Source: Candidatus Oleincola secundus
GTDB lineage: Bacteria; Atribacterota; Phoenicimicrobiia; Phoenicimicrobiales; Stramentimicrobiaceae
Direction of reading: 5' to 3'
Assembly: GCA_018400815.1 (NCBI GenBank)
Contig: JAGYLS010000013.1
Coordinates: 1-32,868 of the forward strand
DNA length: 32,868 nt
The position numbers were made by a program, and so were the translations under genes. Position 1 is the stretch's first letter. Every line of letters begins with the position of its first letter. This document shows, piece after piece, positions 1-32,665 of this stretch. A model generated the notes under the pieces. The model did not search any database. It was not told the DNA's origin and saw only the letters and a list, made by a program, of their open reading frames with translations.

Positions 1-489
1 AGAAAGAAAAAGGGATCTGCCAATCGTGCCAAAGCCCGGCATAGAGTGGCCGGGCTCCATGAGCAGGTTGCCAACCAGAGAAAAGACTTTCTCCACAAAT
101 TGAGCCATAACATCACGTCCAGGTTCGGCCTTGTGGCCCTTGAGGATCTGCATGTAGCAGGCATGGTAAAGAACCACTGCCTGGCCAAAAGTATATCCGA
201 CTCCGGATGGGGTGCATTTGTAACCATGTGCGGGTACAAGGCCAACCTAAGCGGCGGATACCTGTACCAGATTGGCAGGTTCTTTCCATCCAGCAAAACA
301 TGTAGCAACTGCGGGTACATAAATAGTAACCTTCAACTTTCAGACCGCGACTGGCTATGCCCGGAGTGTTCAACCACGTTGGACCGGGATATCAATGCCG
401 CAGTCAATATTTTAGCACAAGCTACCGCCGGAGTGGCGGGAAGTAACGCCTGTGGAGATTGTGTAAGACCAGCCAAGCTTTCAGCTTGA
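1..489 (+). CDS. tnpB: IS200/IS605-family RNA-guided endonuclease TnpB, 3' part (5' end outside window)
   Basis: Frame open from base 1 (RKKRGSANRAKAR...). Motifs NQRKDFLHKLS, RuvC-II VALEDL, SISDSGWG, FPSSKTCSNCG...WLCPEC zinc finger and RuvC-III DRDINAAVNI. Visibly more GC-rich than the flanking phage DNA. Confidence 0.95.
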   Translation, partial: RKKKGSANRAKARHRVAGLHEQVANQRKDFLHKLSHNITSRFGLVALEDLHVAGMVKNHCLAKSISDSGWGAFVTMCGYKANLSGGYLYQIGRFFPSSKTCSNCGYINSNLQLSDRDWLCPECSTTLDRDINAAVNILAQATAGVAGSNACGDCVRPAKLSA

Positions 490-544
490 CTGGCAGTTTT
501 CTTTGAAGCAGGAAGCCCATATGCTTTAGCTATGGGTAGCTCAC
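420..544 (+). ncRNA. TnpB omegaRNA/reRNA scaffold and transposon right end; predicted guide starts at 545 (AAATCCTGCATCTAAA...)
   Basis: Overlaps the tnpB 3' end. Ends GAAG-CCCATATGC-TTTA-GCTATGGG-TAGC-TCAC (subterminal hairpin plus TCAC cleavage tetranucleotide at 541-544). The 5' boundary is approximate. Confidence 0.8.
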
Positions 545-613
545 AAATCCTGCATCTAAAAAAGTTTCTTTCCAAGTCGATAAAAAAATTAATTAATAAG
601 AAAGGAAAAACCA

Positions 614-1897
614 ATGGAAGATGAAATTAAAGAAATTGAACAAACAGTATTTGGGTTTAGAATTGTAAACACAGAAGTTTTGAGGTGTTTAAAATTATGT
701 ATTGAAGCCGAAACAAATAAAAAAATACGGGCTGATAAAGGTTTAAAGATTGGGTTGGTTCTATCTCAAATGAAATATTGGTACGATATAAAATGTAAAG
801 AAAATAAACACAAACATTATTTTTATAAAAGTGCCAATGAATTAAATTATGAATTACCAATTATAGATGAAGAAAATATAAGATGCCATTTAAAGCTATT
901 GACCGATTTGGGGATTTTACTCAGAGAACAAGGGTTATATAAAGGGAACTTTAAAACTTATTCGTATGAATTAAACCTGGCGCATCCTATAAACATACTC
1001 AGTTACTTGGCTGAATCGGCAAATAAAATTACCAATGAAAAAACATACGACCATAAAGGCGAAAAGATTTTTAATCAACATCAATTTTTATCTGAATTAA
1101 CCATAGAAGAAATTTTAGATGGCATTAAAAACAAAACAGCCAGAGATTCAATCCCAAAAATATTGGCAAATGCGAGCTTAGAACCTGAAAAAATCGTCCC
1201 CCCTAAACAGGGTGACGAAAATGACACAAATGAATCCGTCCCCCCTAAACACAGGAACCGTCCCTCCGAAACACAGGAACCGTCCCCCCTAAACACAGGA
1301 ACCGTCCCCCCTAAACACAGGAACCCTACTAAGATTACTCTAAGACCTTCCAAAAACTTCTCAGAGACTAACGAGCGCCTGTATGTCGCTCGAAGCCCCC
1401 ATTTTTTATTTTTTTTTTCACTGCTTTTAAAAAGAACTTTTTTTTATTTTTTTCCAAAATGTGGCTCGGAAAATCGAGCTTACATTTCGAGCCTCGGATT
1501 TGACACATCCAAATTGCTTGATTGCGATATTGGAAAATCTGTTATTTGCAAATTGCAGGATTTACCCCTTGAAAAAATTTATGAATTGAAATATTTAAAA
1601 ATTGGGGGGTGGCGGAAAAATAGCAGAAATGGTTATTATAAAGATTTTAAGAAATGTGATGATGCCAAAAAATGGTTTGATAATTTGGCTGGCAAAGATA
1701 AAGAACTTGTTCAAGCCTTTCAGGAAGATCAATTTAATTGTAGCGCCAAAATCTCAAAAGAATGGTCTTATGACTGCAGTTTGATTGATGCTAAAGAGGG
1801 GGCTGAAAATTTCTTGCAATTTGTTCTTAGAAAAATCGGCACTACCCCTTTAAATATCAATGAAGATTATTATCATAAACAAGAGATAGTTGCCTGA
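614..1897 (+). CDS. Putative phage replication initiator (N-terminal winged-HTH-like region, internal iterons)
   Basis: 427 aa with AAAGGA RBS. N-terminal LVLSQMKYWY...YFYKSANELNYEL...IRCHLKLLTDLGILL resembles phage replisome-organiser wHTH domains. Tandem DNA repeats plus an AT tract lie in mid-gene, as in lambda O. Confidence 0.6.
   Translation: MEDEIKEIEQTVFGFRIVNTEVLRCLKLCIEAETNKKIRADKGLKIGLVLSQMKYWYDIKCKENKHKHYFYKSANELNYELPIIDEENIRCHLKLLTDLGILLREQGLYKGNFKTYSYELNLAHPINILSYLAESANKITNEKTYDHKGEKIFNQHQFLSELTIEEILDGIKNKTARDSIPKILANASLEPEKIVPPKQGDENDTNESVPPKHRNRPSETQEPSPLNTGTVPPKHRNPTKITLRPSKNFSETNERLYVARSPHFLFFFSLLLKRTFFYFFPKCGSENRAYISSLGFDTSKLLDCDIGKSVICKLQDLPLEKIYELKYLKIGGWRKNSRNGYYKDFKKCDDAKKWFDNLAGKDKELVQAFQEDQFNCSAKISKEWSYDCSLIDAKEGAENFLQFVLRKIGTTPLNINEDYYHKQEIVA
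1195..1324 (+). repeat. 22-bp tandem repeats (CGTCCCCCCTAAACACAGGAAC), putative replication-origin iterons
   Basis: Four head-to-tail copies at 1237, 1259 (2 mismatches), 1281 and 1303, plus a partial copy at 1195-1210. The period is not a multiple of 3. A T-rich tract follows at ~1401-1453. Confidence 0.85.
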
Positions 1898-1910
1898 ACT
1901 TCAAGTTCAG
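1894..1910. promoter_or_regulatory. Palindrome CTGAACTT-C-AAGTTCAG, candidate operator
   Basis: Perfect 8-1-8 inverted repeat 10 bp upstream of TTGACA (1921). 16 of the 17 nt recur at 16005-16020. Confidence 0.5.
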
Positions 1911-1920
1911 AACTTTTTTG

Positions 1921-1950
1921 TTGACAAATGATTTTATGTGTGATATACAT
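1921..1950 (+). promoter_or_regulatory. Sigma70-type promoter, copy 1 of a phage promoter family
   Basis: TTGACAAATG-N10-TGATATAC, i.e. TTGACA-17-TATACA with a TG extension, upstream of the polymerase gene. The same motif occurs at 7601 and 30910. Confidence 0.65.
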
Positions 1951-2137
1951 GGCTGAAAAAATCAATTTTAAGGGGGCTGAGATGCTCAAATTTGAACGAT
2001 CGACTGCTCGGCTATACAACGATATATTAAGAAAGAAAAGAGTTTAATTTATGCGAAAGGAAAAATTATTTACAGTTGGGGTTCATTTTCTTATTACAAA
2101 GGAAGAGGCTGTTGATTTTTAAAAAGGAGGATACTTT

Positions 2138-4741
2138 GTGAGTTGTACTGATTGTCCGTTATACAAAAAAGAGAGGGAGATACCGTATCGAGGCAACCCT
2201 GATGCTGATATAGTTTTCATATATGAAAGCGCTGGTTCCACGGAAGTTAAAGAAGGGGTTATGCTTATTGGCCCTTCTTTAAAATATGTTACTAAAGAAT
2301 GTGAGCGAGTTGGGCTTGACTTTAATTCTGTTTTTTTAATGAACGCTGCCCGTTGCCGGATTAATAAAGATAAATACACAGCCGGAGAGATAGGTAAAAT
2401 TTTAAAGGCTTGCCGACCTAATGTTGAAACTGCTTTAAAAACTATTCAGCCGAAACTTATTGTGTGCTTTGGGGCTATAGCCCTTCAACAAGTATATCAT
2501 AAAATGGCTATCAAGCGAGCCAGAAATAGAATATTCTGGTCAGATGAATTTAATGCTCATATCATGGTAACATTTCATCCAGCCGCAATCATGCGTGATC
2601 CCAATAAGTTACCTTTATATCAGGCTGATTTTGACGCTATGATAAGGTTTATTAAAAATAATTATCAGTCCAAATCAGATGTGATATATAAAGAGGTTGA
2701 AAGTATCCAACCTATTTTGGATGGTAATTGTTATAAAGAAGGCAGTTATAGCTTAATTGGTATTGATACCGAAACCCAAGGTGTAGATTGGCATAATAAA
2801 AATTCAGTTATAATTTCTTATCAGGTGTCGAAAGACTTGGACGAGGGCTGGACTGTTATATTGCAAGAGGAGTGCGAAAAGGATAAAGGCGATTATAATA
2901 TAACAGTTCAAAGGGGCGGCTCCAAGAAAACACCCGAATATATAGAGGTAGGTATTAAAAAAACTGAAGGGTATGATAGAAAAGTTAATGAATTAAAGGA
3001 ATTATTACAACGACAGGATATTAAGAAATATTTTTTTAACCAGAAGTTTGAGCAACATAGGTTTATGAACTTAGGAATAATTGATTGGAATAACTGCTGT
3101 ATGGATGTAAGGACAGCGGCGCATTGTCTTGACTCAACTATGTACAGGGATTGTTCCTTGGAAGATGTTATTTCCCAATTTGCCCCTACCAATGAGAATC
3201 ACAAAGGCATTGTAACTGAAACTGAAAAAGCTGATATGCTTATGTTGCTTCAGACAGATAGGGATAAGTTTATTAAATATGCTTCTCTTGACCCTGTTTT
3301 TACATTACGGACTGCGCTCGAAGTGCGGAAAAAATTATTGGCTGATAAAAAATCTTTAAATTATTTTATTAATTTTGCGCAACCGATCGAAAATGAATTT
3401 TTGTTTGATATGGAAAGAAATGGGGTTTTGGTTGATAAAGACAAAATACCTGAAATAAGAACTGCGCTACAGAAAGAGATGGACAGATTCAAGCAACAAT
3501 TTATTAAACTAACTCCTCCCTTGGTGTATCATAAATATGAAAATAATTTTCAGCTTACGAGAACTGTTATTTTGCAGGAGTCGTTATTTACATGGAAAGA
3601 TAAGAAATTAAAAAAGGCGGATTCGGAATTAAAGTTACATGATATAGGATTTAATTTAAAGCCTATTGTGATGAATAAAAAATCAGGCACACCAAGCGTT
3701 GATAAAAAAGTATTAGCCACTATAATTGACGGCAAGTACCCAAAAACGGCTAAGGAGCTTATCAGAACTCATATTAAATGGAATGAGCGAAGGATGCTGA
3801 TTAATAACTTCCTAAAGAATATAGCTCATTATTTGGACGAGGGTAATAGGCTTCATACTAATTTTTCTATAACCTTTACAAGTTCTGGAAGGGTTGCTTC
3901 ACGTAACCCAGGTTTAATGAATCAGCCCAAGCATGGGGATTTAGCTAAATACATAAGAAGCCTGTTTATAGCCGAAGATAATTTTAAGGTATGCCATTGT
4001 GATTACAATGCTTCTGAATTAAGGTGGGTGGCTCATGTGGCTCAGGAAAAAGAATTAATGCGTATTTTTGCTGAAGGAAAAGACCCTCATAGGATTACAG
4101 GACTTTGGGTAAGGGACTTGCCGGAGGATTACAAATTTGAGTCGGAAAAAGAATTAAAAATGACAAGGCAAAATTCTAAGCCCTTGTCTTTTGGGCTTAT
4201 TTATCTTATGTCCTGGCAAGGGCTGAAAAAATACGCCAAACAGGGTTACGGTGTGGAATATACAGATAAACAGGCTAAAGACAATGTTAGTAAGTTCTTC
4301 CAAAAATATAATAAAATACCAATATGGCACACAAAAGATAGGGCATTTTTGGCTGTTCATGGCTATTTAAGAACAGATTTTGGAAGAAAGCTAGTATTGC
4401 CCAACATATTTTCAGAAGAAGATGCTGTAAGGGCTATGGCTGAAAGAACCGGCATTAACGGAAAAATACAAAGCCCATCAAGCGATGGCACACTTTTGGC
4501 AGGTTATGAAATACTTAAAGATAAAAGGGTAGACAAACGTCATTTTAAGACTATATTATTCATACATGATGCTTTAGTTTTTGCTATTGCGGCTGATAAG
4601 ATAGATTATTATTTACCAATAATAAAAGAACACATGGAGAATATACCAACTGAAAGATTTGATTTTAAAATGACAGTCCCATTAAAAATTGAAGCTGAAA
4701 TCGGAGATAGAATGTCAGATTTGCAGGAATATCAATTTTAG
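2138..4741 (+). CDS. polA: Family A DNA polymerase with N-terminal family-4 uracil-DNA-glycosylase-like domain and 3'-5' exonuclease domain (SPO1-type architecture)
   Basis: GTG start with AAGGAGG. UDG-like part: CTDCPLY, NAARCR, TFHPAAIMR. Exonuclease: GIDTETQG, YASLD. Polymerase: TSSGRVASRNPGLMNQP, motif A DYNASELR, motif B RQNSKPLSFGLIY, AER..IN..IQS, motif C IHDAL. Confidence 0.93.
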   Translation: MSCTDCPLYKKEREIPYRGNPDADIVFIYESAGSTEVKEGVMLIGPSLKYVTKECERVGLDFNSVFLMNAARCRINKDKYTAGEIGKILKACRPNVETALKTIQPKLIVCFGAIALQQVYHKMAIKRARNRIFWSDEFNAHIMVTFHPAAIMRDPNKLPLYQADFDAMIRFIKNNYQSKSDVIYKEVESIQPILDGNCYKEGSYSLIGIDTETQGVDWHNKNSVIISYQVSKDLDEGWTVILQEECEKDKGDYNITVQRGGSKKTPEYIEVGIKKTEGYDRKVNELKELLQRQDIKKYFFNQKFEQHRFMNLGIIDWNNCCMDVRTAAHCLDSTMYRDCSLEDVISQFAPTNENHKGIVTETEKADMLMLLQTDRDKFIKYASLDPVFTLRTALEVRKKLLADKKSLNYFINFAQPIENEFLFDMERNGVLVDKDKIPEIRTALQKEMDRFKQQFIKLTPPLVYHKYENNFQLTRTVILQESLFTWKDKKLKKADSELKLHDIGFNLKPIVMNKKSGTPSVDKKVLATIIDGKYPKTAKELIRTHIKWNERRMLINNFLKNIAHYLDEGNRLHTNFSITFTSSGRVASRNPGLMNQPKHGDLAKYIRSLFIAEDNFKVCHCDYNASELRWVAHVAQEKELMRIFAEGKDPHRITGLWVRDLPEDYKFESEKELKMTRQNSKPLSFGLIYLMSWQGLKKYAKQGYGVEYTDKQAKDNVSKFFQKYNKIPIWHTKDRAFLAVHGYLRTDFGRKLVLPNIFSEEDAVRAMAERTGINGKIQSPSSDGTLLAGYEILKDKRVDKRHFKTILFIHDALVFAIAADKIDYYLPIIKEHMENIPTERFDFKMTVPLKIEAEIGDRMSDLQEYQF

Positions 4742-4757
4742 TAGAAAGGCAATAATT

Positions 4758-7571
4758 ATGGAAGATGCGAAAAAATATTATAAGTTACGAAAAGAATTAA
4801 GAAGTATTAAGCGAAAAGCCACAACTGAATTATTGGGTTACGGTACTCGGCAGACGACACCTGAAGAAGATTATATGACGCCCACGGCTTTAAGAGAGCA
4901 TGATTTGATTGTACCTAACTACGATCCTATTAAATTATGCACTATAGCTGAAACAAGCTCAATGGTCGGGGTATGTATTGAAGCTATGGTCAATAATGTT
5001 CATGGGTTCGGCTACGAATTGCAATATACAGGTACAAAAGAAAACGTAAAATCAGATGAAGTTTTGGCTGAAAAAGCTGCCTTGCAAGGATTTTTTTCTA
5101 GAGTAAATGAAACCCAATCAATGGTTGCGCTTAAAAAAGAAGCCGGACTTGACTACGAAAGAACCGGCAACGCCTATATAGAGGTAGTGCCTTATTTGAA
5201 TGGGAGTGTTTCAACTTTGTATAGGGCTGATTCTCAATATATGCGGCTTCAGTTAAAACAAGAAGAAACAACCCCTATCACTGTTAATTTAATACGAAAT
5301 GGAACAGTAAAGCCTACTACTATTCATAAGCGTTTTAGACGTTTTGCAATGATAAGCGACACAACGAATAATATTCGCTGGTTTAAAGAATACGGCGACC
5401 CAAGAGTAATGTGTTCTATATCAGGCAAATATGAGCATGAATTGAAAAAGAACGAAAAGATTATAGCTCCGGCTTCCCAAATAATTCATATCAAACAAGG
5501 CAATGATACTTATGGCGTAGCCCAAGATGGATAAGGGATTGCGTTAGCAGCTATTGGAGTTAAATACGCTGACTTTGTAAATTATGATTTATTTGAAAAT
5601 AATGCTATACCGCTTTTATGTTTAGTATCAGGGGGCGCTTAACCTGTGAAGCTATTGAAGACCTCAGCAAATATTAGAACAGAGAAAAGGGGGTGGAGAA
5701 TTTCACTAAAGTTGCTATTTAGAAGCTATAAGTGCTGAAAGCGGGGATGTTGGGGATAAATCGGCTAACACAAAAATAGATTTTAAACCGTTACCGCAGC
5801 AGAATGATTTGATTTATTGTTTAAAGATTTTATATCCGACACAGAGAAAAGGGTCAGAAGGGCTAAATTCAGGCTTCCAGCAGCACTTTCAGCAGGCAAA
5901 CAGAAGATTTTTTCAAGGTCTTGTTCAGGAAGACACTGAAACATTGACTGAAAATGGATGGAAACATTATTCAGATATAGAAGAAAATGAAAAAGGAATT
6001 GCTACACAACCCTGAAAATAATCGGTTGGAATATCATAACCCTATTGGTGGTATTTTATTATATCCATACAAGGTAAAATGATTCATTTCAAAAATCTCA
6101 ATACTGATGTTTTAGTTACACCGAATCATACGATGTGGGCTTTGCGCGTCAAATGCAAAAAAACCAACTTGGTGTAAAAAACATGCCGAGGATTTTATGT
6201 TATTTGACAGGGCAAGGTCTTATTTCAAACATGCTCTGGTATGCTTTTGGATATAGAAGACAAAGATATTGTTATTCCATTTGAGGATAGAGCAGATACT
6301 AATAGAAGCTATCCATGAAGATTATAGAATATCTATGGATTTCTTTTGGAGTTTTGGGCTATTTATTGGAGACAGGTCTACTTATTCTAAAAGATGTCAG
6401 TATGTTATTGCTTTAGGGGCGCATAAAGAGAAAGAAAACTTGAAAAAATTTAAAATATTGCTGAGTATTTAAATAAAAATCATGATATGTCATATTGTGT
6501 TTCTAAAGATAAAATAGAGGCCTAAATTCTTATTTTATTTCTAATAAAGAGGTTACAGAGAGTGGTTGAGGAGTAATTGTGGGGATAGGGCTTTACACTA
6601 AGCATATGCCTGAATGGTGTTTAAAGCTTAATAAAAGACAGAGTAATATTTTGTTAAATGCTTTAATTGATACAGATGGTACAAGGGAACTTACGAGGGT
6701 TGTAAAAGTGCATTATACTATACAACATCAAAAAATTAGCAGACCAAGTTCAAATATTGGCAATGAGGTGCGGCTATAGAGCTTCACGTCAATTTACCTA
6801 AAATTAAACATGTCATGCAATACCTTATCGTGTTAATATTATATAAAAATCATAGTCAAATTAGAGAGAGGAAGCATCAAATTAAGAGATTGACATGATA
6901 GGATGAAGATTTATTGCTTTGAAGTTCCGAACCATTTATTTTTTACAAGGCGGAAATGGTAAAATAGCTATTCAAGGTAATACATCTGAGAGCTCCAGAA
7001 GCTAATAGCAGAGGAGCAAGTGTTTAGACCTGAAAGAAATAACTTTGATAGGAAATAATTAATTTTTACGATTATGAAAGACCTTGGGGGCGAAAATTGG
7101 GCTTTCAGAACTATTGGGATAAACATAAAGGGTTCGGAATTGAGTGATGCTATTGGCAAGAATTGCAGGAGCTGGCTCGATGTCAATCAACCAGGGAATA
7201 AAAATGTGAATAGGGTTCTTGATTTGGATGTGCCGCTGTTCGATGACCAATGGGCAGGATACCCTGCGGCTATGAGCATTAGAACTATCCAAAAGGGCTA
7301 CCTTAAAGGGATAGAGAGAGAGAATATCAAAATTGCTTCTATCAATAATAATTTAAAAGATAATATTGATAAGGCTGCGACTGAACTTAAAAACCAGGAC
7401 GGCTACGAAGATATTATGAAAGGCATGGAAGATGTAAAAGTGGACAAATGGAGAGAGAATATGATTTTTAATCAGGAACGAATAACTAAAAAAATCCCCA
7501 CGGGAAAAATCAAAACCTGCGAGAGGATTTTATGGGAGAGAACGACCCCAAGGCACTTGATAAATCTATAA
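4758..7571 (+). pseudogene. PBSX-family phage portal protein with intein; frameshifted after ~5520 (probably sequencing error rather than true decay)
   Basis: ATG 4758. PNYDP..L, CIEAMVNNVHGFG, DYERTGNAYIEV and WFKEYGDPR are in frame, then YGV/PRWI spans a frameshift at ~5520. Later fragments read DFSRS[intein]TSES...AEEQVFRPER..FD..IN. The 3' end is approximate. Confidence 0.8.
5922..6981 (+). mobile_element. Intein with LAGLIDADG homing endonuclease inside the portal gene (frameshifted)
   Basis: Block A C...EDTETLTENGWK from TGT 5922, block B DVLVTPNHTMW, endonuclease block LLNALIDTDG, and C-terminal YCFEVPNHL...NGKIAIQGN followed by Thr (ACA 6982). Confidence 0.85.
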
Positions 7572-7600
7572 TAAGCCTTTTAGGATGTCAATATTTTTAG

Positions 7601-7639
7601 TTGACAAATGGAGGTAAATATGATATAAGATAAAAAACA
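7601..7639 (+). promoter_or_regulatory. Sigma70-type promoter, copy 2
   Basis: TTGACAAATG-GAGGT-AAATATGATATAAGATAAAAAACA (TTGACA-17-TATAAG). Nearly identical to 30910-30948. Confidence 0.7.
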
Positions 7640-7900
7640 GTCAACTAACCAGCTACCTAAAGGGTAGTGGCTTGAAAAGAGGAAGGGAAATCCTCTTTGA
7701 AGTCGGTTGATTAACTTTAGTGAAAACTATGTTATATAAGAATGATATAGTTACCTTGAAGTGCTTCACTAGCTTCAAGCTCTAAGTACAGTGATTAAAC
7801 ATTCCTGAGGGTTAGGGAGAAGTGTTGCTGTTGAAAACCTTATATAACTTTAGCCGAAGTGAACCCACCACGGCGTAAGGTGAGATATTATCTGAAAAGG
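7640..7900 (+). ncRNA. IscB omegaRNA (HEARO-type) scaffold; guide is the 5' flank ending at 7639
   Basis: ~270-nt structured non-coding leader (GTCAAC...GTTGA pairing, ACTATGTTATATAAG...CTTATATAAC, CTTGAAG...CTTCAAGCTCT, GCCGAAG) between the element end and the iscB start. Confidence 0.8.
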
Positions 7901-7910
7901 ATTAAACTAA

Positions 7911-9250
7911 ATGGTATGCGTATTAAGTCGGGCAAGGGAAAACCTCTAATACTAGCAAATGCAAAGAAACAAGAAGGATTTTACTTAAACAAGGAAAAGC
8001 AGTGTTAAGACTGTAAAGCCCTTTCACTTTATACAACTAACTTATACTACCACAGAGTACACTCAGAAAGTAACTTTAGGTGTTGATTCAGGGTACTTAA
8101 ACACTAGGGTTTAGTGCAGTATCTGTGAATCTAAGAACTAATATCCAGGTGAGGAGTTAAACTCCTTCAAGGTATGAGTGATAGGATTTCAGAGAAGTCC
8201 ATGTACCGAACTATAAAGAGAAGGAAGGTAGACTTGGACACCGAAAGCTGGGTTTGATAATAGGGAACGCAAGAAGGTTGGTTAGCACCATAGTATTCAA
8301 CACAGGATACTCATGTTAGATTCATTGAAAAGTTGAAAAGAGTCAATACTCTATATCTAAAAAGTTATGAGTAGAGTTGCAAATTTCGATACAGAAATTA
8401 AAAATCCTGACATTGAAGTGAAAGGCTACCAAGAGGAGGTGAGCAGAAAGGTTTCTGGAGACAGGGAATATATGTCTCCACCGAGATGGGCATAAATGTC
8501 AAATCCTAAATGTAAAGTCTACAGGTAAAAGATATCTTGAAGTTCATCACATTAAATTTAGGGGTAACAGTGGAACGGATACACCTAATAATCTTATAAC
8601 TTTATGTTCTAACTAGCACATACTTCTGAAAACCACCATAAGAAGGTAAATTTCTATATGAGTGGCAGTATACTAAACCTAAATTAGAAGTTTCAAGGAT
8701 GCTACCTTTATGAAGTATGGTGAGATGGAAGGTAACTAAAATATTAAACTGTAAAGTTACTTTTGGGTACATAACAAAGTCTAAAAAGGATTGAATTAAG
8801 GTTAGAGAAAGGAAATCACATTATAACGATGCGCTTCGCTATAGCGGGTGGAAGTACTCAAGTAGGGTTCACCCTATAGAAGTTGAACAGACAAGAAGAA
8901 GGAATAACAGAAGTTTAGAGAGGTTTTATGATTCTAAATTCATTGATGTTAGAACAGGAAAGAAAGTTAGTGGAGGTGAGTTGAATTGTGGTAGAAGAAC
9001 TCGGAAATAAGAGCTATAACACTGAAAACCTAAGGGTGTACAGAGGTGAAGGTGTCTAAGGACAAGAAGGATACGTACTCAAAGATATTTTATACCAACC
9101 AGGGGACTTAATTAAATACGAAATAGAGGTGTATACAGTTAAAGGTGCTCAGAATAGCGGAAAGTAGTAACTTGGCACTAAAGAAATTAAGTACTTAGGG
9201 TTGAATTATTAGAACCTTATAGGTTTAGGAAAGGACTGGTGGTAGTATGA
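7911..9250 (+). pseudogene. iscB: IscB RNA-guided endonuclease, many frameshifts (probably sequencing error)
   Basis: Fragments across frames: MV.VL...GKPL, LLKQGKA, IQLTY, QKVTLGVDSG (RuvC-I), Arg-rich bridge helix, FDNR...GWLAP, HNH part LEVHHIKFRGNSGTDTPNNLITLC, and SHYNDA (RuvC-III). Confidence 0.9.
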
Positions 9251-9330
9251 GGGTGAATAAGCATTCATCCACTACCCTAAAGGGATAGTGGTTTTCTGCT
9301 AAGTTTTTATAAAAAAGGGAGGATAGAAAA

Positions 9331-10783
9331 ATGATAGGTAAACAATAGTTGAACACACATGATTGGATGTTGCGGAGTTCCAGCAACGGGGTTTCCTACA
9401 GAGAGGGTTTCAATGGGAAAAGAGAGTGGACTAAAGGCCAAGTTGGGATTCGTCTCCGATATGTGGGGATGGTTTTTACATGGCAATGCCCCCCGAAGCT
9501 CATGGCTTTGGGCTTTATTATTATGCGGGGGTGGAGCTTTGTGAAACCAAGGGCAAGAAGAGTAGTGGTACAAGGTGACAAAATAAAGGTTCCAGAGGCA
9601 AGGATTGTAGCGATGGGGAGATCCCACAAGAGGCGTTTGTTTCAGTGTGGGATGACAAAAATAACGGAAAGATTGCACCATAACTCTAACGATGGAGATT
9701 GGTACGTTATTTTTAGGAGCAATGTAACAGTAAAAGACCAACAAGGCGGGGAGTGTCGGGCTTATGACAAAGCCACCATAAACTCCAAGAACCAACAAGG
9801 CGGGTGGTGTCGGGCTTACTAGTGGCCACCACCATAAACTCCGGAGAACCAACAAGGCAGGGAAGTGTCAGGCTTATTATGGCAAACTACCATAAACTCA
9901 AGAACCAACAAGGCGGGAGTGTCGAACATGGCAAAGCTACCGTAAACTCGAGAACCAACAAGGCGGGGAGTGTCAGGCTTATGGCAAAGCTACCATAAAC
10001 TCCGAGAACCAACAAGGCGGGGAGTGTCAGGCTTATTATGGCAAAGCTACCATAAACTCCAAGAACCAACAAGGCGGGTAGTGTCAGGCTTATGGCAAAG
10101 CTACCGTAAACTCCGAGAACCAACAAGGCGGGGGTGTCAGGCTTATTATGGCAAAGCTACCATAAACTCCGAGAACCAACAAGGCGGGGAGTGTCAGGCT
10201 TATTATGGCAAAGCTACCATAAACTCAGAACAAGGCGAATTGGTGTCGGGCTTATTATGACAAAGCCCACCATAAACTCCGGTAACAAGGCGGGGAGTGT
10301 CGGGCTTATAGCAAAGCTACCATAAACTCCAAGAACCAACAAGGCGGGTGGTGTCGGGCTTATTATGACAAAGCCACCATAAACTCCGAGGGCAACAAGG
10401 CGGGGAGTGTCGGACATAGCAAAGCTACCATAAACTCCAGAACCAACAAGGCGGGTGGTGGTATCCGGGCTTATTATGACAAAGCTACCATAAACTCAAA
10501 GAACCAACAAGGCAGGGAGTGTCAGGCTTATGGCAAAGCTTACCGTAAACTCCGAGAACCAACAAGGCAGTGTCAGGCTTATTATGGCAAAGCTACCATA
10601 GCTCCACGAGAACCAACAAGGCGGGAGTGTCAGGCTTATTATGGCAAAGCTACCATAAACTCCAAGAACCAACAAGGCGGGTGGTGTCGGGCTTATTATG
10701 ACAAAGCCACCATAAACTCCAAGAACCAACAAGGCGGGTGGTGTCGGGCTTATTATGACAAAGCCACCATAAATTATTTATAA
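9331..10783 (+). pseudogene. Phage protein with a globular N-terminal domain and ~19 18-aa repeats (probable beta-helix/solenoid); frameshifted in this assembly
   Basis: GGGAGG RBS and ATG at 9331. Unique sequence runs in frame into QQGGECRAYDKATINSKN. The last repeat ends KATINYL-TAA at 10783. Confidence 0.6.
9736..10773 (+). repeat. Tandem repeat, ~19 copies of a ~54-57 bp unit (GAGAACCAACAAGGCGGGGAGTGTCAGGCTTAT[TAT]GGCAAAGCTACCATAAACTCC)
   Basis: Counted by the CAAGGC anchors. No unique spacers. The 54-bp unit translates as ENQQGGECQAYGKATINS. Confidence 0.95.
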
Positions 10784-14407: not shown

Positions 14408-14824
14408 ATGTTATGCGAAGCTATAAAATTGGCTGTTAAAGCCCACGCCGGACAAATGGACAAATGTGGTCAACCTTATATCTTACACCCATTAAGGGTA
14501 ATGTTTAATGTACCGGATTATTTAAGGGTTCCGGCTGTTTTACATGATGTGGTGGAGGATACAAAAATTACATTAGATATGTTGAGGCAAAAAGGGTTTT
14601 CCGATGAGGACGTTTCTGTAGTTGATGCCTTAACAAAAAGGCAAGATGAAAAGTATGCTGATTATATAAAAAGAGTATCTTTGAACACATCGGCTTCTAT
14701 TATCAAAATACAAGACTTATACGATAATATGTTACCTGAGCGCAATCAGTTTAAAGGGGCAGGAAGTTTAATGAAACGCTATAAGAAAGCTTTGTGGGAA
14801 TTGAAAGGAGTGAAAGTAGTGTGA
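14408..14824 (+). CDS. HD-domain hydrolase, RelA/SpoT hydrolase (small alarmone hydrolase)-like
   Basis: AHAGQ.DK.GQPYILHP, AVLHDVVED, VDALTK, IK..DL.DN. The stop codon lies inside the element starting at 14821. Confidence 0.85.
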   Translation: MLCEAIKLAVKAHAGQMDKCGQPYILHPLRVMFNVPDYLRVPAVLHDVVEDTKITLDMLRQKGFSDEDVSVVDALTKRQDEKYADYIKRVSLNTSASIIKIQDLYDNMLPERNQFKGAGSLMKRYKKALWELKGVKVV

Positions 14825-14941
14825 ACTACCACTACCTTAAAAGGTGGGACGCACCCGAACTTAAACGCCCACGGAGAGGCGGTGCTACAAGGCCCCTCAT
14901 TGAAGTGGGAAGCCACCTGCTTTAGCTGGTGGAGCAGTCAC
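14821..14941 (+). ncRNA. Orphan TnpB-type omegaRNA/right end fused to a partial, oppositely oriented element end; predicted guide from 14942 (ATGAGGATACAAGTATAAAA)
   Basis: AACGCC...GGAGA...TTGAAG..GGAAGCC..TGCTTTAGCT...TCAC parallels 420-544. The first ~25 nt, GTGAACTACCACTACCTTAAAAGGT, parallel the end at 32290. No tnpB ORF. Confidence 0.75.
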
Positions 14942-18905: not shown

Positions 18906-18951
18906 GTCAACTACCCAAAGCTAAAGCATTGGGCTTTCTCAGACATTATTT
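18906..18951. mobile_element. 46-nt single-hairpin IS200/IS605 derivative (PATE-like), copy 1, followed by GTAA
   Basis: GTCAACTA-CCCAAAGC-TAAA-GCATTGGG-CTTTCTCAGACATTATTT. Including GTAA, 50 nt are identical to 31396-31445. Similar to the reverse complement of the tnpB right end (512-544). Confidence 0.85.
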
Positions 18952-18984
18952 GTAACTCGAAAGATTGCTGAAAAAAGGCTACGC

Positions 18985-25415: not shown

Positions 25416-28400
25416 TGATGTATTTAGGGATTTTATATATTTTAGAACTTATTCGAGATGGCTGGACACAGAACATAGAAGGGAGTTTTGGCATGAAACT
25501 ACAGATAGATACAGAAATTTTTTTATAGAGTCTGTTCCTAAATCAAAGAAGAAAGAATTTGCAAAAGCTTGTGATGCTATTAAGGCGCAAGAAATAATGG
25601 GAAGTATGAGAGGGCTGTGGACTGCCGGCAAAGCATTAGAAAGAGAAAATTTATGTCTTTATAATTGTGCTGCCCTTTTAATTGATTCTGTAAAATCTTT
25701 TTCTGAGCTTTTGTATTTGTTAATGAACGGCACTGGAGTAGGCTATTCTGTAGAACGACAATACATAACAAAATTACCGGATATTCCGGTTTTAGATTAT
25801 AGTGACGACACTATAATTTTTTCTGATAGCAAATTGGGATGGGCTGAAGGGTATAATAAGTTTTTAAAGCAATTATACAACGGAAATATTTTAAATTATG
25901 ATTTATCTAAATTAAGACCAAAAGGAGCCAGACTAAAAACGTTTGGTGGCCGTGCTTGTCTCACTGGGGATACTATTCTTTATAAAGATAGGAAAAAGGC
26001 GAGAGGATATAATGAAATAACTATAAGAGAGCTATATGATTTAGAAAGATCACAAGGTAGATGGGAGCATAAACCAAATCATTTTAAAGCAGTTAAACTG
26101 CGTTCTTTGGACGAAAAAACAGGAACTTTTTTTCGTAATAATGTGTTACATGTAATTGATAATGGAGTAGCGCCAGTATATGAAATATTAACTGAGAATG
26201 GCTACAGAATAAAAGCTACTGATAATCATAGATTTATGAATGACTTGGGAGAGTATCAGTTTGTTTCTGAATTTAACCCAGGTGAGTTTATCGCTGTAAA
26301 TGGGTCTAAAGATAGGAGAACAGGTATTTGTATAGACTGTGGTTGTAAAATTTATCCGTCCTCTATTAGATGCAAGTCTTGTCATGATATATTTCAAATG
26401 AAAGATGATTGTCTACCTACTACTGCTCGTCAAAGAAGACAATGTAGATCTTATTTAAAAGAGTCTTGTGAGTTATGTGGGCATGATGGATCATCGAGTA
26501 AATTACAGGTCCATCATATTGACAAAAATCCACATAATAATGATTGGGATAACCTACAAACTCTTTGTGAAAAATGCCATAGAGTGGAAGATGCTAAATT
26601 GAGTACTTTTGGTAGCGCATATTCTCATAAATACTTATCGTTTGATAAGATTATTTCTATAGAATACGCTGGAACAGAGAGAGTGTATGATTTACAAATG
26701 GAAGGACCAAATCATAATTTTGTTGCTAATGGTTTTGTATCTCATAATAGTGGAGGACAGGTTTTAGATAACTTATTAAAATTTACCATTCAAATATTTA
26801 AAAACGCACAGGGCAGAAAATTAAATTCGTTGGAGTGCAATGATCTTTGTTGTTATATAGCCAGTATTATTATTGTTGGCGGCACAAGAAGGGCTGCTTG
26901 TATTTGTCTTTCCAACCCATCTGATGATCGTATGCGACATGCTAAAGATGGTCAATTTTGGAAAACTGCTCCCTACCGATCATTATCAAATATTTCTGCT
27001 GCTTATACCGAGAAGCCTTCTTCTGATTTATTTTTATCTGAATTTTTAAATTTAATCAGGAGTGGTAGTGGGGAAAGGGGTATTTTTAATAGAGAATCAT
27101 GTGAGTTTACTGTACGACAAAACGAGTACAGAAAAAGTAATTATTCGTGGTTGAGCAATCCTTGCTTTACAGGGGATATGCGGTTACTTACTGATATTGG
27201 GTATGATAGTTTTAAAAAACTATCAAAACAAGAATTTGTAAATACAGTTAATGAAGAAGGTGATATTTCTGAAGGCAAGGTTTGGTCTAATGGAATAAAG
27301 CCAGTATATGAAATTGTTTTAAGCGGAAAATTTAAAAATATTAAATGCACAATAGACCATAAATTTAAATTAATTGACGGATCGTCTTGTTTAGCTAAAG
27401 ACTTAACAGGAAAAAGATTAAAACCGTTTTTTGGGATTAGAAAAATTCAGGAGGAGGCGTTTAATTTTGATGATTTTTATGCTGGTTTTTTATTTGGGGA
27501 CGGTTCGCTTACAAGGCTTTCCTCTAAATCACACTTAGGCATGGAAGTTAGGATAGGCAAGAATGACTATGATATTGCTAATTTATTAGGATTAGAAGAA
27601 GGGGGCAACTACAACAAATATGCTTATGATTTAGCCGTAAAATACGGGTTTCCTTCTGCTGTAACTTATGAAAGGGAGTTACCAGAAAAATTAAATATCA
27701 CTAATGATTTTTTGTGCGGGCTTTATTCTGCTAATGGGTCTGTTATAGAATCTGCTTGTAGAATATCTTATAAGACAACAAGCAAGAAACTTTCTTTACA
27801 AATTTGTGATGAACTAAAAAAGAGAAAGATTAGTTGTTATATTACTACAAACAAAGCACATTCTGTAAAACATGCGAATGGGGCTTATGTCAGCAGAGAA
27901 AGTTATGATATTAATATAGCAGACGTTATTTCTTTTATGAGATTTGCGGAGATTATCGGTTTTGGTCAGATATACAAACAAGAAAGACTTCATAGTTGTA
28001 TTTTAAAAAAAGCTCCCTTTGTAAAATCGGTACGATTTATTGGCGAAGAAGAGGTTTTTGATTTTTCAGAGCCTTTGACTCATTGGGGGATTGTGGAAGG
28101 GGTTGTTGCTCATAATTGCGGGGAACGAATATTACGACCAAGATCGTTGTGTAATTTATCAGAAGTGATTGTAAGGCCAGATGATACAAAAGAAACACTA
28201 TGTCGGAAAGTCCGACAAGCCACAATTTTAGGCTGTGTTCAAGCCTGCTATACTAAATTTAATTTTGTGTCAAGGGACTGGAAGAAGAATGCAGAAGACG
28301 AAAGATTAATAGGCGTTAGTTTTACTGGCCTTAGAGACCATAAAGTATTAAATAAAGTATCCAACGAAGCTAAACTTTGGTTTACCGAGTTTAAACAGGT

Positions 28401-29046
28401 GTGTATTGATACAGCTTTAGAGTGGTCAAAAGCTTTGGAAATAAATATGCCCGCATGCCAAACTTGTGTTAAACCGGCAGGTACAACATCTGCTTTGTGT
28501 GGTACATCAAGCGGGCTTCATCCAAGATTTTCACAATACTATATTAGAAGAGTAAGAGTTGCGGCTGTTGACCCGCTGGCAAATTTATTAATTGATTGTA
28601 ATGTGCCACATAAACCAGAAAACGGTCAAACTATTGATAATGTTGATACCTGGGTTTTTGAATTTCCAATGATATCTCCTGAAGATTCTGTATTAAATTC
28701 TGAGGTAAATGCTATAGAACAATTAGAATATTGGTTGATGCTTAAAAAATATTGGTGTACTGGTAATCCAAGCTGTACTATTCATGTAGACGAAAATGAA
28801 TGGGTTGAAGTAGCCTCGTGGGTTTATAAACATTGGAATTATATAGCTGGCATAACCTTTCTACCTAAATCTAATACAGTATATGAATTAATGCCGTTTG
28901 AAGAAATTTCAGAAACCAAATATAATGAGTTAATTAAAAATTTGCCGGATGTAGATTTTTCATTATTGTCTAAATACGAAGAAACAGATGAAACGCAAGG
29001 GGCGCAGGAATTAGCTTGTAGTGGTGGATCATGTGAAATCGAATAA
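25405..29046 (+). CDS. nrdJ: Class II (adenosylcobalamin-dependent) ribonucleotide reductase with two inteins
   Basis: Probable start ATG 25405. YFRTYSRW, RRE.W.ET..R, YNCA, GTGVG.SVE, RPKGARLKTFGGRA^SG, GGTRRAA, GERGIFN, NP^CGE, CNLSE, TCVKPAGT, C-terminal ACSGGSCE. Confidence 0.93.
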   Translation: MIFNDVFRDFIYFRTYSRWLDTEHRREFWHETTDRYRNFFIESVPKSKKKEFAKACDAIKAQEIMGSMRGLWTAGKALERENLCLYNCAALLIDSVKSFSELLYLLMNGTGVGYSVERQYITKLPDIPVLDYSDDTIIFSDSKLGWAEGYNKFLKQLYNGNILNYDLSKLRPKGARLKTFGGRACLTGDTILYKDRKKARGYNEITIRELYDLERSQGRWEHKPNHFKAVKLRSLDEKTGTFFRNNVLHVIDNGVAPVYEILTENGYRIKATDNHRFMNDLGEYQFVSEFNPGEFIAVNGSKDRRTGICIDCGCKIYPSSIRCKSCHDIFQMKDDCLPTTARQRRQCRSYLKESCELCGHDGSSSKLQVHHIDKNPHNNDWDNLQTLCEKCHRVEDAKLSTFGSAYSHKYLSFDKIISIEYAGTERVYDLQMEGPNHNFVANGFVSHNSGGQVLDNLLKFTIQIFKNAQGRKLNSLECNDLCCYIASIIIVGGTRRAACICLSNPSDDRMRHAKDGQFWKTAPYRSLSNISAAYTEKPSSDLFLSEFLNLIRSGSGERGIFNRESCEFTVRQNEYRKSNYSWLSNPCFTGDMRLLTDIGYDSFKKLSKQEFVNTVNEEGDISEGKVWSNGIKPVYEIVLSGKFKNIKCTIDHKFKLIDGSSCLAKDLTGKRLKPFFGIRKIQEEAFNFDDFYAGFLFGDGSLTRLSSKSHLGMEVRIGKNDYDIANLLGLEEGGNYNKYAYDLAVKYGFPSAVTYERELPEKLNITNDFLCGLYSANGSVIESACRISYKTTSKKLSLQICDELKKRKISCYITTNKAHSVKHANGAYVSRESYDINIADVISFMRFAEIIGFGQIYKQERLHSCILKKAPFVKSVRFIGEEEVFDFSEPLTHWGIVEGVVAHNCGERILRPRSLCNLSEVIVRPDDTKETLCRKVRQATILGCVQACYTKFNFVSRDWKKNAEDERLIGVSFTGLRDHKVLNKVSNEAKLWFTEFKQVCIDTALEWSKALEINMPACQTCVKPAGTTSALCGTSSGLHPRFSQYYIRRVRVAAVDPLANLLIDCNVPHKPENGQTIDNVDTWVFEFPMISPEDSVLNSEVNAIEQLEYWLMLKKYWCTGNPSCTIHVDENEWVEVASWVYKHWNYIAGITFLPKSNTVYELMPFEEISETKYNELIKNLPDVDFSLLSKYEETDETQGAQELACSGGSCEIE
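25957..26748 (+). mobile_element. Intein 1 in NrdJ (264 aa) with zinc fingers and an HNH endonuclease
   Basis: GGRA|CLTGDT, IKATDNHRF, CELCG...LQVHHIDKNPHNN...NLQTLCEKCH, VYDLQM..PNHNFVANGFVSHN|S. Confidence 0.93.
27163..28116 (+). mobile_element. Intein 2 in NrdJ (318 aa) with LAGLIDADG endonuclease, at the active-site Cys
   Basis: NP|CFTGDM, CTIDHKF, YAGFLFGDG, LCGLYSANG, VFDF...GVVAHN|CGE. Confidence 0.93.
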
Positions 29047-31151: not shown

Positions 31152-31445
31152 ATGAAGGTGGAAAGCAAATGTTGGGGCAAACGAACTTCTATTCGACAAG
31201 ACTCGACACACGAAACTTGTTTACTGGAACTAAAAAAGGGCTATGAATGCTCCTGGCATTATCACGAACAGAAATATAATTTATTTTATGTGATTTCCGG
31301 CTGTGTTTCTATAATTACAGAACAATTCGACAATGAAAAATCGGAAGTTATTTTATTTGAAGGAAATTGTTTTATGGTTAAGCCAGGGCTGAAACGTCAA
31401 CTACCCAAAGCTAAAGCATTGGGCTTTCTCAGACATTATTTGTAA
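31152..31445 (+). pseudogene. Cupin-fold protein, apparently truncated by the 46-nt element
   Basis: K.WG, CSWHYH..K.N.FYV.SG, VKPGLK. The expected second-motif His and last strands are replaced by element-derived RQLPKAKALGFLRHYL. Confidence 0.7.
31396..31441. mobile_element. 46-nt single-hairpin IS200/IS605 derivative, copy 2, followed by GTAA
   Basis: Identical to 18906-18951 with unrelated flanks. Confidence 0.85.
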
Positions 31446-31454
31446 AAGATAGAG

Positions 31455-31631
31455 ATGTATAGAAAAGTTAGAAAAAAAGTGCCTCCTCCGACAATATGGT
31501 ATAAGGATAAATCCAAATATAAAAGGAATAAATACAAAGAGATTGAAAAAGAGTTGGAAGATATGATTAATGAATACTTCGACAATAAAGATATGGACGG
31601 AAATAATCAAGATAGCGGAAATAATGCCTGA
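31455..31631 (+). CDS. Hypothetical protein (58 aa)
   Basis: MYRKVRKKVPPPTIWYKDKSKYKR...NNA-TGA. Confidence 0.55.
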   Translation: MYRKVRKKVPPPTIWYKDKSKYKRNKYKEIEKELEDMINEYFDNKDMDGNNQDSGNNA

Positions 31632-31711
31632 GTCAGTACAAGAGTTACGACAAGGTGATATAGTTTACCAGAAGTATATAGAAAACAGTTTAATTTTTTT
31701 ATGGGGGGCGT

Positions 31712-32095
31712 ATGCCAAAAATAAAATTGGAGGAGCAAGCGACAAGGTCATTTTATTGCCCTATTAAAAAACAGATGGGTAAGGCGCTATTAAATTGTCC
31801 GGCTTGCCCGCATTTTCCTTGTTCTGCACTCCGAGTTCAGGACATTGAATTTTTAAGGAAATATTGTAAATCGTATGAATGGCTGGAAAGGATAAAGAAA
31901 ACAAAAATGGTTATTATTGAAAAAACAGACGGCACATTTGAAAAAAATGAGAACTTCAATCCCGACAAAGCGGCGGAAAAAGATTTAAAAAACATAAAGG
32001 CCGTATACGTACCGACAAAGATTTATACAAAACAAGTTAAATTAGTGCCAATAGCCAAAAAGAGGAAAGTAAAAAATGTTAAGGAGAGCGGCTGA
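31712..32095 (+). CDS. Hypothetical protein with Cys cluster
   Basis: GGGGG RBS. YCP...CPACPHFPC. Confidence 0.65.
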   Translation: MPKIKLEEQATRSFYCPIKKQMGKALLNCPACPHFPCSALRVQDIEFLRKYCKSYEWLERIKKTKMVIIEKTDGTFEKNENFNPDKAAEKDLKNIKAVYVPTKIYTKQVKLVPIAKKRKVKNVKESG

Positions 32096-32261
32096 AAAAA
32101 TGATCGAAATATGTCAGAAACATGGGGTTACCGTTGATATTGATTTAACCGATCCTGAGCGCCCTAAAATCGAATTTAAAGACCCTGTTCCAGCTTCCGT
32201 AGATGATGCTATATATAATGAAATAAAAGCCCTGTATGGCTACCTGCTGCTTTTAGAATAG
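32076..32261 (+). CDS. Hypothetical protein
   Basis: GAGGA RBS, 61 aa. Confidence 0.65.
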   Translation: MLRRAAEKMIEICQKHGVTVDIDLTDPERPKIEFKDPVPASVDDAIYNEIKALYGYLLLLE

Positions 32262-32289
32262 ATATTCAAAATAATAGATTGAACTTGGA

Positions 32290-32659
32290 GTGAACTACCT
32301 CTACCCTAAAGGGATAGCGGCTTCTTCGGAAGCCTAAGTTCACCAGACTAAGTATTCAGAAATGGATACTACGATAGATAGGTCAAGACACCTTCGGTTG
32401 ACGCACCAGACCGTTGCAACTGTCGCATAATGTTAAGTAGAACTGAGGGTAAGGTTCAGTGGATTATGTGCAAAAAGCCTGTTTATCTTTGTCGAGGTGA
32501 GGACGGATTCTCTAATTGGTAACAGATTAGAGATACGCATTACCTACCTTCGGGTAGAGTGTTTTGAGTTTGGCAGTTCCTACCAAAAACTGCCTTTTTA
32601 AAACGCAACGACGGCTTACATCCCCTACCCTAAAGGGATAGGGGTTTTACGCCGTTCTT
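32290..32659 (+). mobile_element. ORF-less IS200/IS605 element consisting of an IscB-type omegaRNA (HEARO-like) between two intact ends
   Basis: GTGAACTA plus hairpin CCTCTACCCTAAAGGGATAGCGG. Scaffold hallmarks GTTCACCAGACTAAG, CTACGATAGATAGG...CCTGTTTATC and TGTCGAGG. Second hairpin CCCCTACCCTAAAGGGATAGGGG at 32622-32644, then ATAAA at 32660. Confidence 0.85.
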
Positions 32660-32665
32660 ATAAAT

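Follow-up and report, generated by a model that had tools for sequence, protein, structure and literature searches.

In IS608 of Helicobacter pylori, guide and cleavage tetranucleotides are paired as GL AAAG with CL TTAC and GR GAAT with CR TCAA (PMC5934647). In the non-autonomous TnpB/IscB families studied by Meers et al. (2023; bioRxiv 10.1101/2023.03.14.532601), TAM and TEM covary with the guides. Terminal-only PATEs of 52 bp have been described to arise when a repeat-mediated deletion removes their core (Dyall-Smith et al., 2011; PMC3119063).

The stretch analyzed here, referred to as the window, comprises 32,868 nucleotides of contig JAGYLS010000013.1 and carries six elements, all of which were found where a previous sequence-only reading had placed them. 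They are IS200/IS605 copies and leftovers in a phage fragment, genuine yet ordinary. Subterminal hairpins are present at all ends, without terminal inverted repeats, and the differing flanks of the two 46-mers (elements 4 and 5) show no target duplication. Left and right ends are on the same strand in elements 2 and 6, while that of element 1 on the left lies beyond the contig start, a left end is lacking in element 3, and in elements 4 and 5 one hairpin stands for both ends. We consider it likely that elements from several families were inserted, having been moved in trans, and then decayed to a PATE, a fusion, and scars. The phage segment would have been struck repeatedly by non-autonomous IS200/IS605 elements from different families, with a Y1 TnpA acting in trans as the probable mobilizer. 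Elements 1 and 2 would be full-length selfish homing units, in which TnpB or IscB with its own omegaRNA would cut the empty donor site so that the element is copied back, as is established for the family; elements 3 to 6 would be decay products. The contig thus offers a compact set of IS200/IS605 decay stages within a phage. The "reduction series" that had been proposed holds as a series of anatomical types but not as a single lineage, since several families are involved. The omegaRNAs of elements 2 and 6 are identical in 154 of 293 alignment columns, and those of elements 1 and 3 in 68 of 129. One common ancestor for all six elements was dropped, the omegaRNA scaffolds being only about 53% alike.

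Element 1 consists of two overlapping parts:

1..489, plus strand: 3' part of tnpB (162 aa, the last 162 codons; the contig start cuts the gene)
416..544, plus strand: scaffold of the TnpB omegaRNA together with the right end (GAAG foot at 512-515, hairpin, TCAC at 541-544)

In the tnpB fragment, the RuvC motifs E (LEDL) and D (DRD) are kept, as is the zinc finger; the fragment is 97% identical to the intact 377-aa TnpB P0038/P0039, which pass NCBIfam guided_TnpB. The first RuvC D is beyond the contig start and is present in P0038/P0039. The omegaRNA overlaps the 3' end of tnpB. Of the "tnpB+RNA" unit read at 1-544, omegaRNA and right end stand, while tnpB is incomplete, being truncated by the contig start. 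No left end for element 1 was obtained from 30 viral TnpB relatives, all of which are at most 56% identical.

Because Rfam had no TnpB RNA match for elements 1 and 3, a custom TnpB omegaRNA model was built from seven sequences, with element 1 included and element 3 excluded. Element 3 has the following parts:

14821..14844, minus strand: 5' part, half of a right-end hairpin from a minus-strand element, ending in TCAC
14838..14941, plus strand: 3' part, core of an orphan omegaRNA of TnpB type with its right end (GAAG foot and TCAC at 14938-14941)

The model matches 14838-14941 at full length (29 bits; E about 1.6e-6, a rough value), and in the CCUGU/GCAGG helix three positions are changed with pairing kept. 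The half hairpin at 14821-14844 has three mismatches to the end of element 6; two matches were obtained in 0 of 100 shuffles. Its first bases provide the stop codon for an HD-domain gene (14408-14824). The "orphan TnpB-type RNA" read at 14821-14941 is confirmed as to RNA core and TCAC end, but two right ends are fused in it and a left end is lacking. It probably represents the deletion junction of two oppositely oriented elements, both of which would have lost their left ends. Comparison of element 3 to phages and plasmids gave no match, and its motif had 0 matches in viral contigs.

Element 2 lies in a problematic part of the assembly:

7601..7639, plus strand: promoter-like motif, putative IscB guide source, lying immediately upstream of element 2 and having paralogues at 1921 and 30910
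7640..7868, plus strand: IscB omegaRNA (HEARO); the right end is on the minus strand (CAAG foot, TGAC at 7640)
7911..9247, plus strand: iscB, with HNH and RuvC motifs recognizable
9269..9312, minus strand: left-end hairpin with an AAAA foot and a leader of 13 nt; the target TTAT is at 9309-9312
5490..9690, no strand: error-rich assembly stretch (portal gene, its intein-like insert, and iscB all frameshifted)

HEARO (Rfam RF02033) matches exceed the gathering score at 7640-7868 and at 32290-32504, both over the full 211-position model; together with the custom model matching element 3, the covariance models agree with the RNA types that had been assigned. The HEARO omegaRNA sits upstream of iscB, as is typical of OMEGA-IscB, and similarity to phage c-st begins at 7640. 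The promoter-like motif was not called by a consensus promoter scan; it is parted by element 2 from RBS and ATG, which are joined to it in the paralogue at 30910. The iscB sequence is identical to the 437-aa relative P0001, which passes guided_IscB, in 355 of 423 aligned residues. Compared to 437-aa relatives it shows about 33 frameshifts and one stop, and the ORF list of the window holds no ORF of at least 60 aa between 7572 and 9306. For the "omegaRNA+iscB" unit read at 7640-9308, coordinates, HEARO, and motifs are thus upheld but the iscB frame is broken in the window.

These breaks, together with the broken portal and cupin genes, might suggest a decaying prophage, with iscB and the portal gene, like the orphans, being genuine pseudogenes. 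This is improbable, as the contigs from two samples match 4600-5488 exactly (0 differences of short-read runs X1 and X2 to the window), yet show hundreds of gaps over 5550-9612, where a single X1 contig differs in 81 letters and 241 gaps, most of the listed differences being common to X2. In addition, long genes outside the error-rich stretch are open. These data point to 5490-9690 being an unpolished stretch. Because both short-read runs disagree with the window there, portal gene included, the iscB frameshifts are probably assembly error. We have thus dropped iscB as a proven pseudogene; the "pseudogene" is likely a sequencing artefact and should serve as a warning. The two nucleases attributed to the phage are plausible, given that the TnpB fragment is so close to intact proteins, but neither has its whole frame open in the window. 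No joint skipping element 2 was found in the matched short-read contigs, assembled contigs being prone to lose rare variants.

Element 6 retains both ends and lacks a gene:

32290..32663, plus strand: gene-less PATE (HEARO omegaRNA at 32290-32504, further hairpins)

On the minus strand, its right end has a GAAG foot with TCAC at 32290 and its left end an AAAA foot 11 nt from TTAT (32660-32663). The HEARO match and the lack of an ORF bear out its description as an ORF-less IscB-type RNA element. It would have lost iscB and kept both ends, leaving a PATE that may still be mobilizable. As had been stated, there is no tnpA: the 86 ORFs of the window include no tnpA-like one, and a Y1 TnpA (PF01797) search of the genome gave no match on this contig (C35). 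The host search that had been suggested yielded one IS200/IS605 TnpA in the genome bin, on C133, with hairpins unlike those of the window. REP-type Y1 proteins are also encoded in the bin (C159, C119); they were rejected as mobilizer, since the tested piece falls short of the REP cut-off and there is no link to the window hairpins. The phage contig may lie outside this genome bin.

All tetranucleotides named by the sequence-only reading were confirmed at their coordinates, in the transposon orientation it had correctly assigned (minus strand for the IscB-type and 46-nt elements). The guide predicts the cleavage tetranucleotide in 8 of the 10 full hairpin-site pairs of the window, both misses being the tails of the 46-mers. 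The joint chance of seven independent matches is about 1e-13, a rough value with offsets picked post hoc; because the ends are homologous, a covariation table is the fairer test. We compiled 114 unique viral right ends out of at least 125. Among the matches listed, a GAAG foot goes with TCAC in 78/78 cases and a CAAG foot with TGAC in 24/25, so that 102/103 follow the code (p 1.4e-22 for the covariation, with kin not independent). AAAG-footed right ends among these matches carry TTAC in 5 of 11 cases, none with a TTAY leader, and TCAC in 6 of 11, five of these with a leader at 11-16 nt. As a tidy side result, most right ends breaking the code among the matches listed (5/7) are solo-hairpin recombinants. 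For left ends, the expected site was found in 8 of 11 hand-picked cases, 12-24 nt away. Minimum-energy DNA folds mispaired some tails and were excluded from the evidence. The guide code as proposed is thus correct, judged by the viral right-end covariation among the matches listed, but it is not new, being prior in Meers et al. (2023) and in the IS608 structures. The ends probably obey it because they derive from working transposon ends.

Both misses concern the 46-nt elements:

18906..18955, minus strand: element 4, 46-nt solo hairpin and target TTAC (18952-18955), intergenic
31396..31445, minus strand: element 5, second 46-nt solo hairpin and target TTAC (31442-31445)
31152..31395, plus strand: cupin gene broken by element 5, directly after the KPGLK codons

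The two 46-mers (18906-18951 and 31396-31441) have the same sequence throughout, and the flanks part exactly at TGAC and just past TTAC. Each has a left-end leader, an AAAG foot (14 nt from TTAC), one hairpin, and a right-end tail with TGAC; this is the layout of a terminal-only PATE, with left leader, single palindrome, and right tail in about 50 nt. All of 13 cupin relatives go on with HKF and further residues. The final 30 or so conserved residues are absent from the contig, a tblastn search within the window giving no convincing match for the C-terminal piece. The break sets the right boundary of element 5, and the opposite flank is deleted.

The 46-mers are probably scars of core deletion between a left and a right end, i.e. 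the "terminal-only PATEs" of 2011. In an element whose right end is CAAG/TGAC and whose two hairpins, left and right, are nearly identical, deletion between the hairpins would leave the left leader, a single hairpin, and the right tail. The TGAC exception that had been noted is real, and such a recombinant origin would account for it: the tail, which mismatches the surviving AAAG guide, would come from the recombined CAAG/TGAC right end. A scar of this kind would hold TAM and target apart, so that cargo might be shed without recreating a cuttable site.

The solo pattern (TTAY at 11-16 nt) was found in 19/27 viral and 18/61 genome matches, or in 35 of 85 unique matches versus 2-13 of 82-85 in control windows; among the 18 "solos" from genomes, at least two (L057, L079) are in fact ordinary right ends of TnpB elements. 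In G001, 19 of 30 fetched loci are solos with leader, hairpin, and tail. Two-hairpin parents with the same leader as the solos (L100, L115) and full-length tnpB parents (L374, L375) occur there as well, so that parents with near-identical left and right hairpins are present in the G001 family. In the IscB element L137, the left hairpin is the same as that of the 46-mer, and the right end CAAG...TAGTTGAC has 14 bases in common with the 46-mer; the recombinant of L137 would therefore bear the hairpin and tail of the 46-mer. L029 is a solo with the leader of the element 6 family, and C147, from the genome bin of the C133 TnpA, carries an iscB element with an internal deletion and an almost identical left hairpin. 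A strict pattern for the 46-mer parent gave 0 matches, the 46-mer's own leader gave one match, without hairpin and taken as chance, and none of 85 further genomes of the phylum had a parent with this leader.

Solos might instead be mobile minimal transposons, one hairpin serving as both ends and a second one being supplied in trans in the TnpA dimer. Identical 46-mers at separate TTAC sites of the window, a corresponding pair in a different phage contig (L013/L015), and the fact that solos outnumber parents in G001 would fit this, and mobility was suggested by Dyall-Smith et al. (2011; PMC3119063) for six strain-specific insertions that occur only as the 52-bp form. We nevertheless regard it as unlikely. 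Solo tails (TGAC, TCAC) mismatch the AAAG guide, excision of ISGst2 requires intact LE and RE with cognate pairing (Meers et al., 2023), and parents with near-identical hairpins would yield identical scars independently. Because none of the five code-consistent AAAG->TTAC right ends among the matches listed has a left-end leader, there is no sign of selection for a self-consistent solo. If mobile, the solos would test whether TnpA can act on one hairpin. For single-hairpin elements, only Dyall-Smith et al. (2011) was found in the literature covered, which mostly excludes subscription papers.

The sequence-only reading had further proposed that TnpB, IscB, and the orphan omegaRNAs of the phage together form a dispersed multi-guide system for cutting relatives with empty sites. 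Several features could be cited for this: the scaffold is kept in both orphan RNAs (elements 3 and 6), both sit behind plus-strand genes able to transcribe them, elements 2 and 6 share the plus-strand flank ATAAA so that a single IscB TAM could serve both, and the actual phage probably has an intact TnpB and IscB. Homing directed at co-infecting phages is recognized as a category (PMC13565253, Table 1), and loading of orphan RNAs in trans is not new, having already been proposed for bacterial PATEs. However, every feature is also to be expected from plain decay. Orphan and cognate scaffolds belong to different families, and their similarity of only about 53% makes cross-loading uncertain. Element 3 has no left end, and its former TAM need not equal that of the TnpB of element 1. 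The guide of element 2 would be only a few bases long if transcribed from the adjacent promoter-like motif. The four 16-nt guides have no second site with zero or one mismatch in G000 among the matches listed. The search for empty sites found no empty allele or close relative for any window element: RecA relatives were lacking in viral contigs, HD-gene relatives in metagenomes (80 of 550 loci) had best-segment identities of 35-64%, too distant for DNA comparison, and element 6 matched phages only at its left end. No RNA datasets matching 7000-9800, the interval searched, were found; run X12, with short pieces in 5/30 bins, was set aside. The literature covered, again with few subscription papers, yielded no study dealing directly with orphan omegaRNAs in phages. 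With neither empty site nor target found, the anti-phage system is unsupported, and we consider it very unlikely. A broader version, in which intact IscB with the element 6 RNA and TnpB with the element 3 RNA provide extra guides while cut-proof 46-nt solos spread, is also quite doubtful. If true, scars of dead transposons would cut co-infecting relatives at several sites and the solos would be the smallest single-strand transposons; trans-loading by itself would make this a naturally occurring homing system with several guides, at work in the competition between phages. The set looks like ordinary decay, not like a coordinated multi-guide weapon.

Among known systems, HEARO RNA/IscB omegaRNA (RF02033) is represented by elements 2 and 6, both above the gathering score, although element 6 has no ORF, and element 2 shows an additional hairpin and is part of the error-rich stretch. 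With IS608 (PMC5934647), the window has in common imperfect hairpins in subterminal position, guides of 4 nt at the 5' foot, and cleavage tetranucleotides that are outside the element on the left but inside it on the right. It differs by the lack of tnpA, by the pairs GAAG/TCAC, CAAG/TGAC, and AAAA/TTAT, by leaders of 11-14 nt, and by nearly identical left and right hairpins. ISGst1-5 and the PATEs of Geobacillus stearothermophilus (Meers et al., 2023) are similar in that several non-autonomous TnpB/IscB families share one replicon, TAM/TEM covary with DNA guides, the IscB omegaRNA comes from the right end, and the PATEs are gene-less with omegaRNAs that would need TnpB or another nuclease in trans. 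The window, in contrast, is a phage contig known from sequence alone, with a single copy per family except for the 46-mer, and in its element 3 two right ends are fused head to head. The PATEs of Haloquadratum walsbyi (HqIRS46, ISHwa23; PMC3119063) are likewise left/right fusions of about 50 nt with one palindrome and several copies, whereas those of the window are 46 nt long, are set in a bacterial phage, and belong to a hairpin family with a CTTTAG loop.

Contig C35 constitutes the complete window, and the genome bin to which it was assigned (G000, Candidatus Oleincola secundus) comprises 2.0 Mb in 213 contigs. PHROGs labels (30 proteins scanned) name a portal, DNA polymerase, primase, helicase, RecA-like protein, nuclease, and ribonucleotide reductase; on this basis, C35 is a phage segment. 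It carries six elements, whose coordinates and tetranucleotides in the sequence-only reading all proved correct on re-inspection:

1–544: element 1, tnpB with its RNA
7640–9308: element 2, omegaRNA with iscB
14821–14941: element 3, initially labeled an orphan TnpB-type RNA
18906–18951, minus strand: element 4, a 46-mer
31396–31441, minus strand: element 5, a 46-mer
32290–32659: element 6, a gene-less element (PATE)

The guide code, by which 4 nt at the hairpin foot predict the cleavage tetranucleotide, is real and is upheld in viral relatives. We applied the pairing rule of the IS608 structures (site position 1 with guide position 2, 2 with 1, 4 with 4; site position 3 is A). A viral scan in which the first position of the guide and the second of the site were unconstrained returned at least 125 loci (114 unique). 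Among the matches listed, GAAG was followed by TCAC in 78/78 unique right ends and CAAG by TGAC in 24 of 25, while the 11 AAAG right ends were divided between TTAC (5/11) and TCAC (6/11). The left-end check was weaker, the predicted site being found 12–24 nt from the guide at 8 of 11 hand-picked ends. The rule reproduces the two guide/site pairs of PMC5934647. The code is known, not new: Meers et al. (bioRxiv 10.1101/2023.03.14.532601) describe covariation of TAM/TEM with DNA guides across ISGst1–5, an IscB scaffold stemming from the right end, and PATE omegaRNAs that would require TnpB in trans.

Two nucleases had been attributed to the phage. In the window, tnpB is cut by the contig start and iscB has no ORF, yet both are probably functional or intact in the phage itself. 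The 162-residue tnpB fragment is 97% identical to intact 377-aa proteins having D-E-D motifs, and TnpB is thus probably functional. The iscB region (7911–9247) aligns end to end with 437-aa relatives (355/423 identities), with about 33 frameshifts and one stop. Short-read contigs from X1 and X2, two samples of one study of which X1 may be the source sample, show zero differences from the window over 4600–5488. A single X1 contig across 5550–9612, however, shows 81 letter differences and 241 gaps relative to the window, most of those listed recurring in X2. This appears to be an unpolished assembly stretch, so that iscB is probably intact in the phage and would have an open frame. The portal gene (4689–7070) and its intein-like insert are frameshifted similarly; by eye, the insert has a Hint-like start near 5930 and LAGLIDADG-like words near 6650, and the piece tested against Pfam gave no match. 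About 19 tandem 57-nt units (9737–10773), translating to a 19-aa repeat, probably belong to a single repeat-protein gene that begins near 9331 and is garbled by the same assembly errors.

In the ribonucleotide reductase gene (25279–29046), intein sequence is accompanied by HNH and LAGLIDADG domains, apparently as two inteins; the phage is rich in homing elements. A family A DNA polymerase (2138–4741) carries a uracil-DNA-glycosylase-superfamily domain at its N-terminus. Four copies of a 22-nt repeat (1236–1325) within a replication-initiator-like gene are likely origin iterons.

In a HEARO covariance search (Rfam, gathering score 83), element 2 (7640–7868, 100.6 bits) and element 6 (32290–32504, 122.8 bits) both score above threshold. 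A promoter-like motif (TTGACA, 15 nt, TG, TAYA word) occurs at 1921, 7601, and 30910, element 2 lying directly downstream of the 7601 copy. For element 3, the orphan RNA label holds for 14838–14941, which matches the full TnpB right-end covariance model (seven sequences, element 1 included, element 3 excluded) and retains the CCUGU/GCAGG helix as CCCAC/GUGGG. It does not hold for the first 24 bases, which are the outer half of an opposite-strand right-end hairpin (three mismatches to the end of element 6). Element 3 has two outward-facing right ends and no left end. TnpA could not mobilize the whole, and its former site has lost its TAM. We infer that element 3 is the junction left by a deletion that removed the interiors of two oppositely oriented elements.

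The orphan omegaRNAs had been proposed to load the nucleases in trans as a dispersed multi-guide system against related phages. In support of this, the scaffolds of both orphans (elements 3 and 6) are complete, and an ATAAA flank is common to elements 2 and 6. Standalone IscB omegaRNAs acting in trans in a bacterium were reportedly described by Altae-Tran and colleagues in 2021. Homing against co-infecting phages is a listed category in PMC13565253, and PMC10734277 gives the general homing picture. However, the omegaRNAs belong to different families with diverged scaffolds (identity about 53%), the left end of element 3 is lost, and the four 16-nt guides have no second site in the bin, perfect or with one mismatch, among the matches listed. 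No relative with an empty site was found among RecA relatives in viral contigs, HD-gene relatives in metagenomes, or in searches of phages and plasmids with element 3 and of phages with element 6. The underlying observations were careful and mostly right; we consider this headline proposal unlikely.

A cupin gene is disrupted by element 5, the break falling at the conserved KPGLK-H. The last ca. 30 cupin residues, present in 13/13 relatives, are absent from the contig, indicating that a flanking deletion accompanied element 5; the simply reconstructed empty site is therefore not the ancestral allele.

As had been noted, C35 encodes no Y1 transposase. Elsewhere in the bin, an IS200/IS605 TnpA is encoded on C133, with hairpins unlike those of the phage elements, and REP-type Y1 proteins on C159 and C119. 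The iscB element on contig C147 (10060–10872) is internally deleted in frame, and its ends obey the code (right CAAG/TGAC, left GAAA/TCAT); its left hairpin is identical to that of element 2 at 31 of 32 positions.

The 46-mers are identical to each other, and their flanks part at the predicted TGAC and just past TTAC. Each has a left-end leader, an AAAG foot, a single hairpin, and a right-end tail and lacks an omegaRNA scaffold. The AAAG foot with right-end tail recurs at 27 viral and 61 genomic loci, with TTAY 11–16 nt upstream of the guide in 19/27 and 18/61, the genomic set including at least two false positives; for unique loci this amounts to 35/85, compared to 2–13 in control windows. 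In another genome (G001), one IS605 hairpin has 110 matches. Of 30 of these loci, 19 are solos (single hairpins between leader and tail) with a 24-nt leader, and another two, which share this leader, are the left ends of two-hairpin PATEs. Full-length tnpB parents bearing it occur in two further regions. With solos beside both kinds of parent, G001 is well suited to testing whether solos are mobile. At L015:190–260, a solo hairpin splits an inverted repeat, one arm on each side, supporting TTAC and TCAC boundaries.

The TGAC end of the 46-mers had been singled out as the sole exception to the code. The observation stands and can be accounted for by an IscB element (L137) whose left-end hairpin is that of the 46-mers and whose right end has a CAAG foot and the tail TAGTTGAC: deletion between both hairpins would give the TGAC end.

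Established here are the anatomy of the elements, the limits of elements 4 and 5, the covariation of guide and site, solos recurring alongside parents, and distinct families. The phage elements were probably inserted by TnpA acting in trans. Elements 1 and 2 would home, elements 3–6 probably arose by deletion, and the scarred sites would be protected from cutting. As scars, the 46-mers belong to a known kind: Dyall-Smith et al. (PMC3119063), who leave mobility open, describe 52-bp terminal-only PATEs of exactly this type, resulting from repeat-mediated core deletion.
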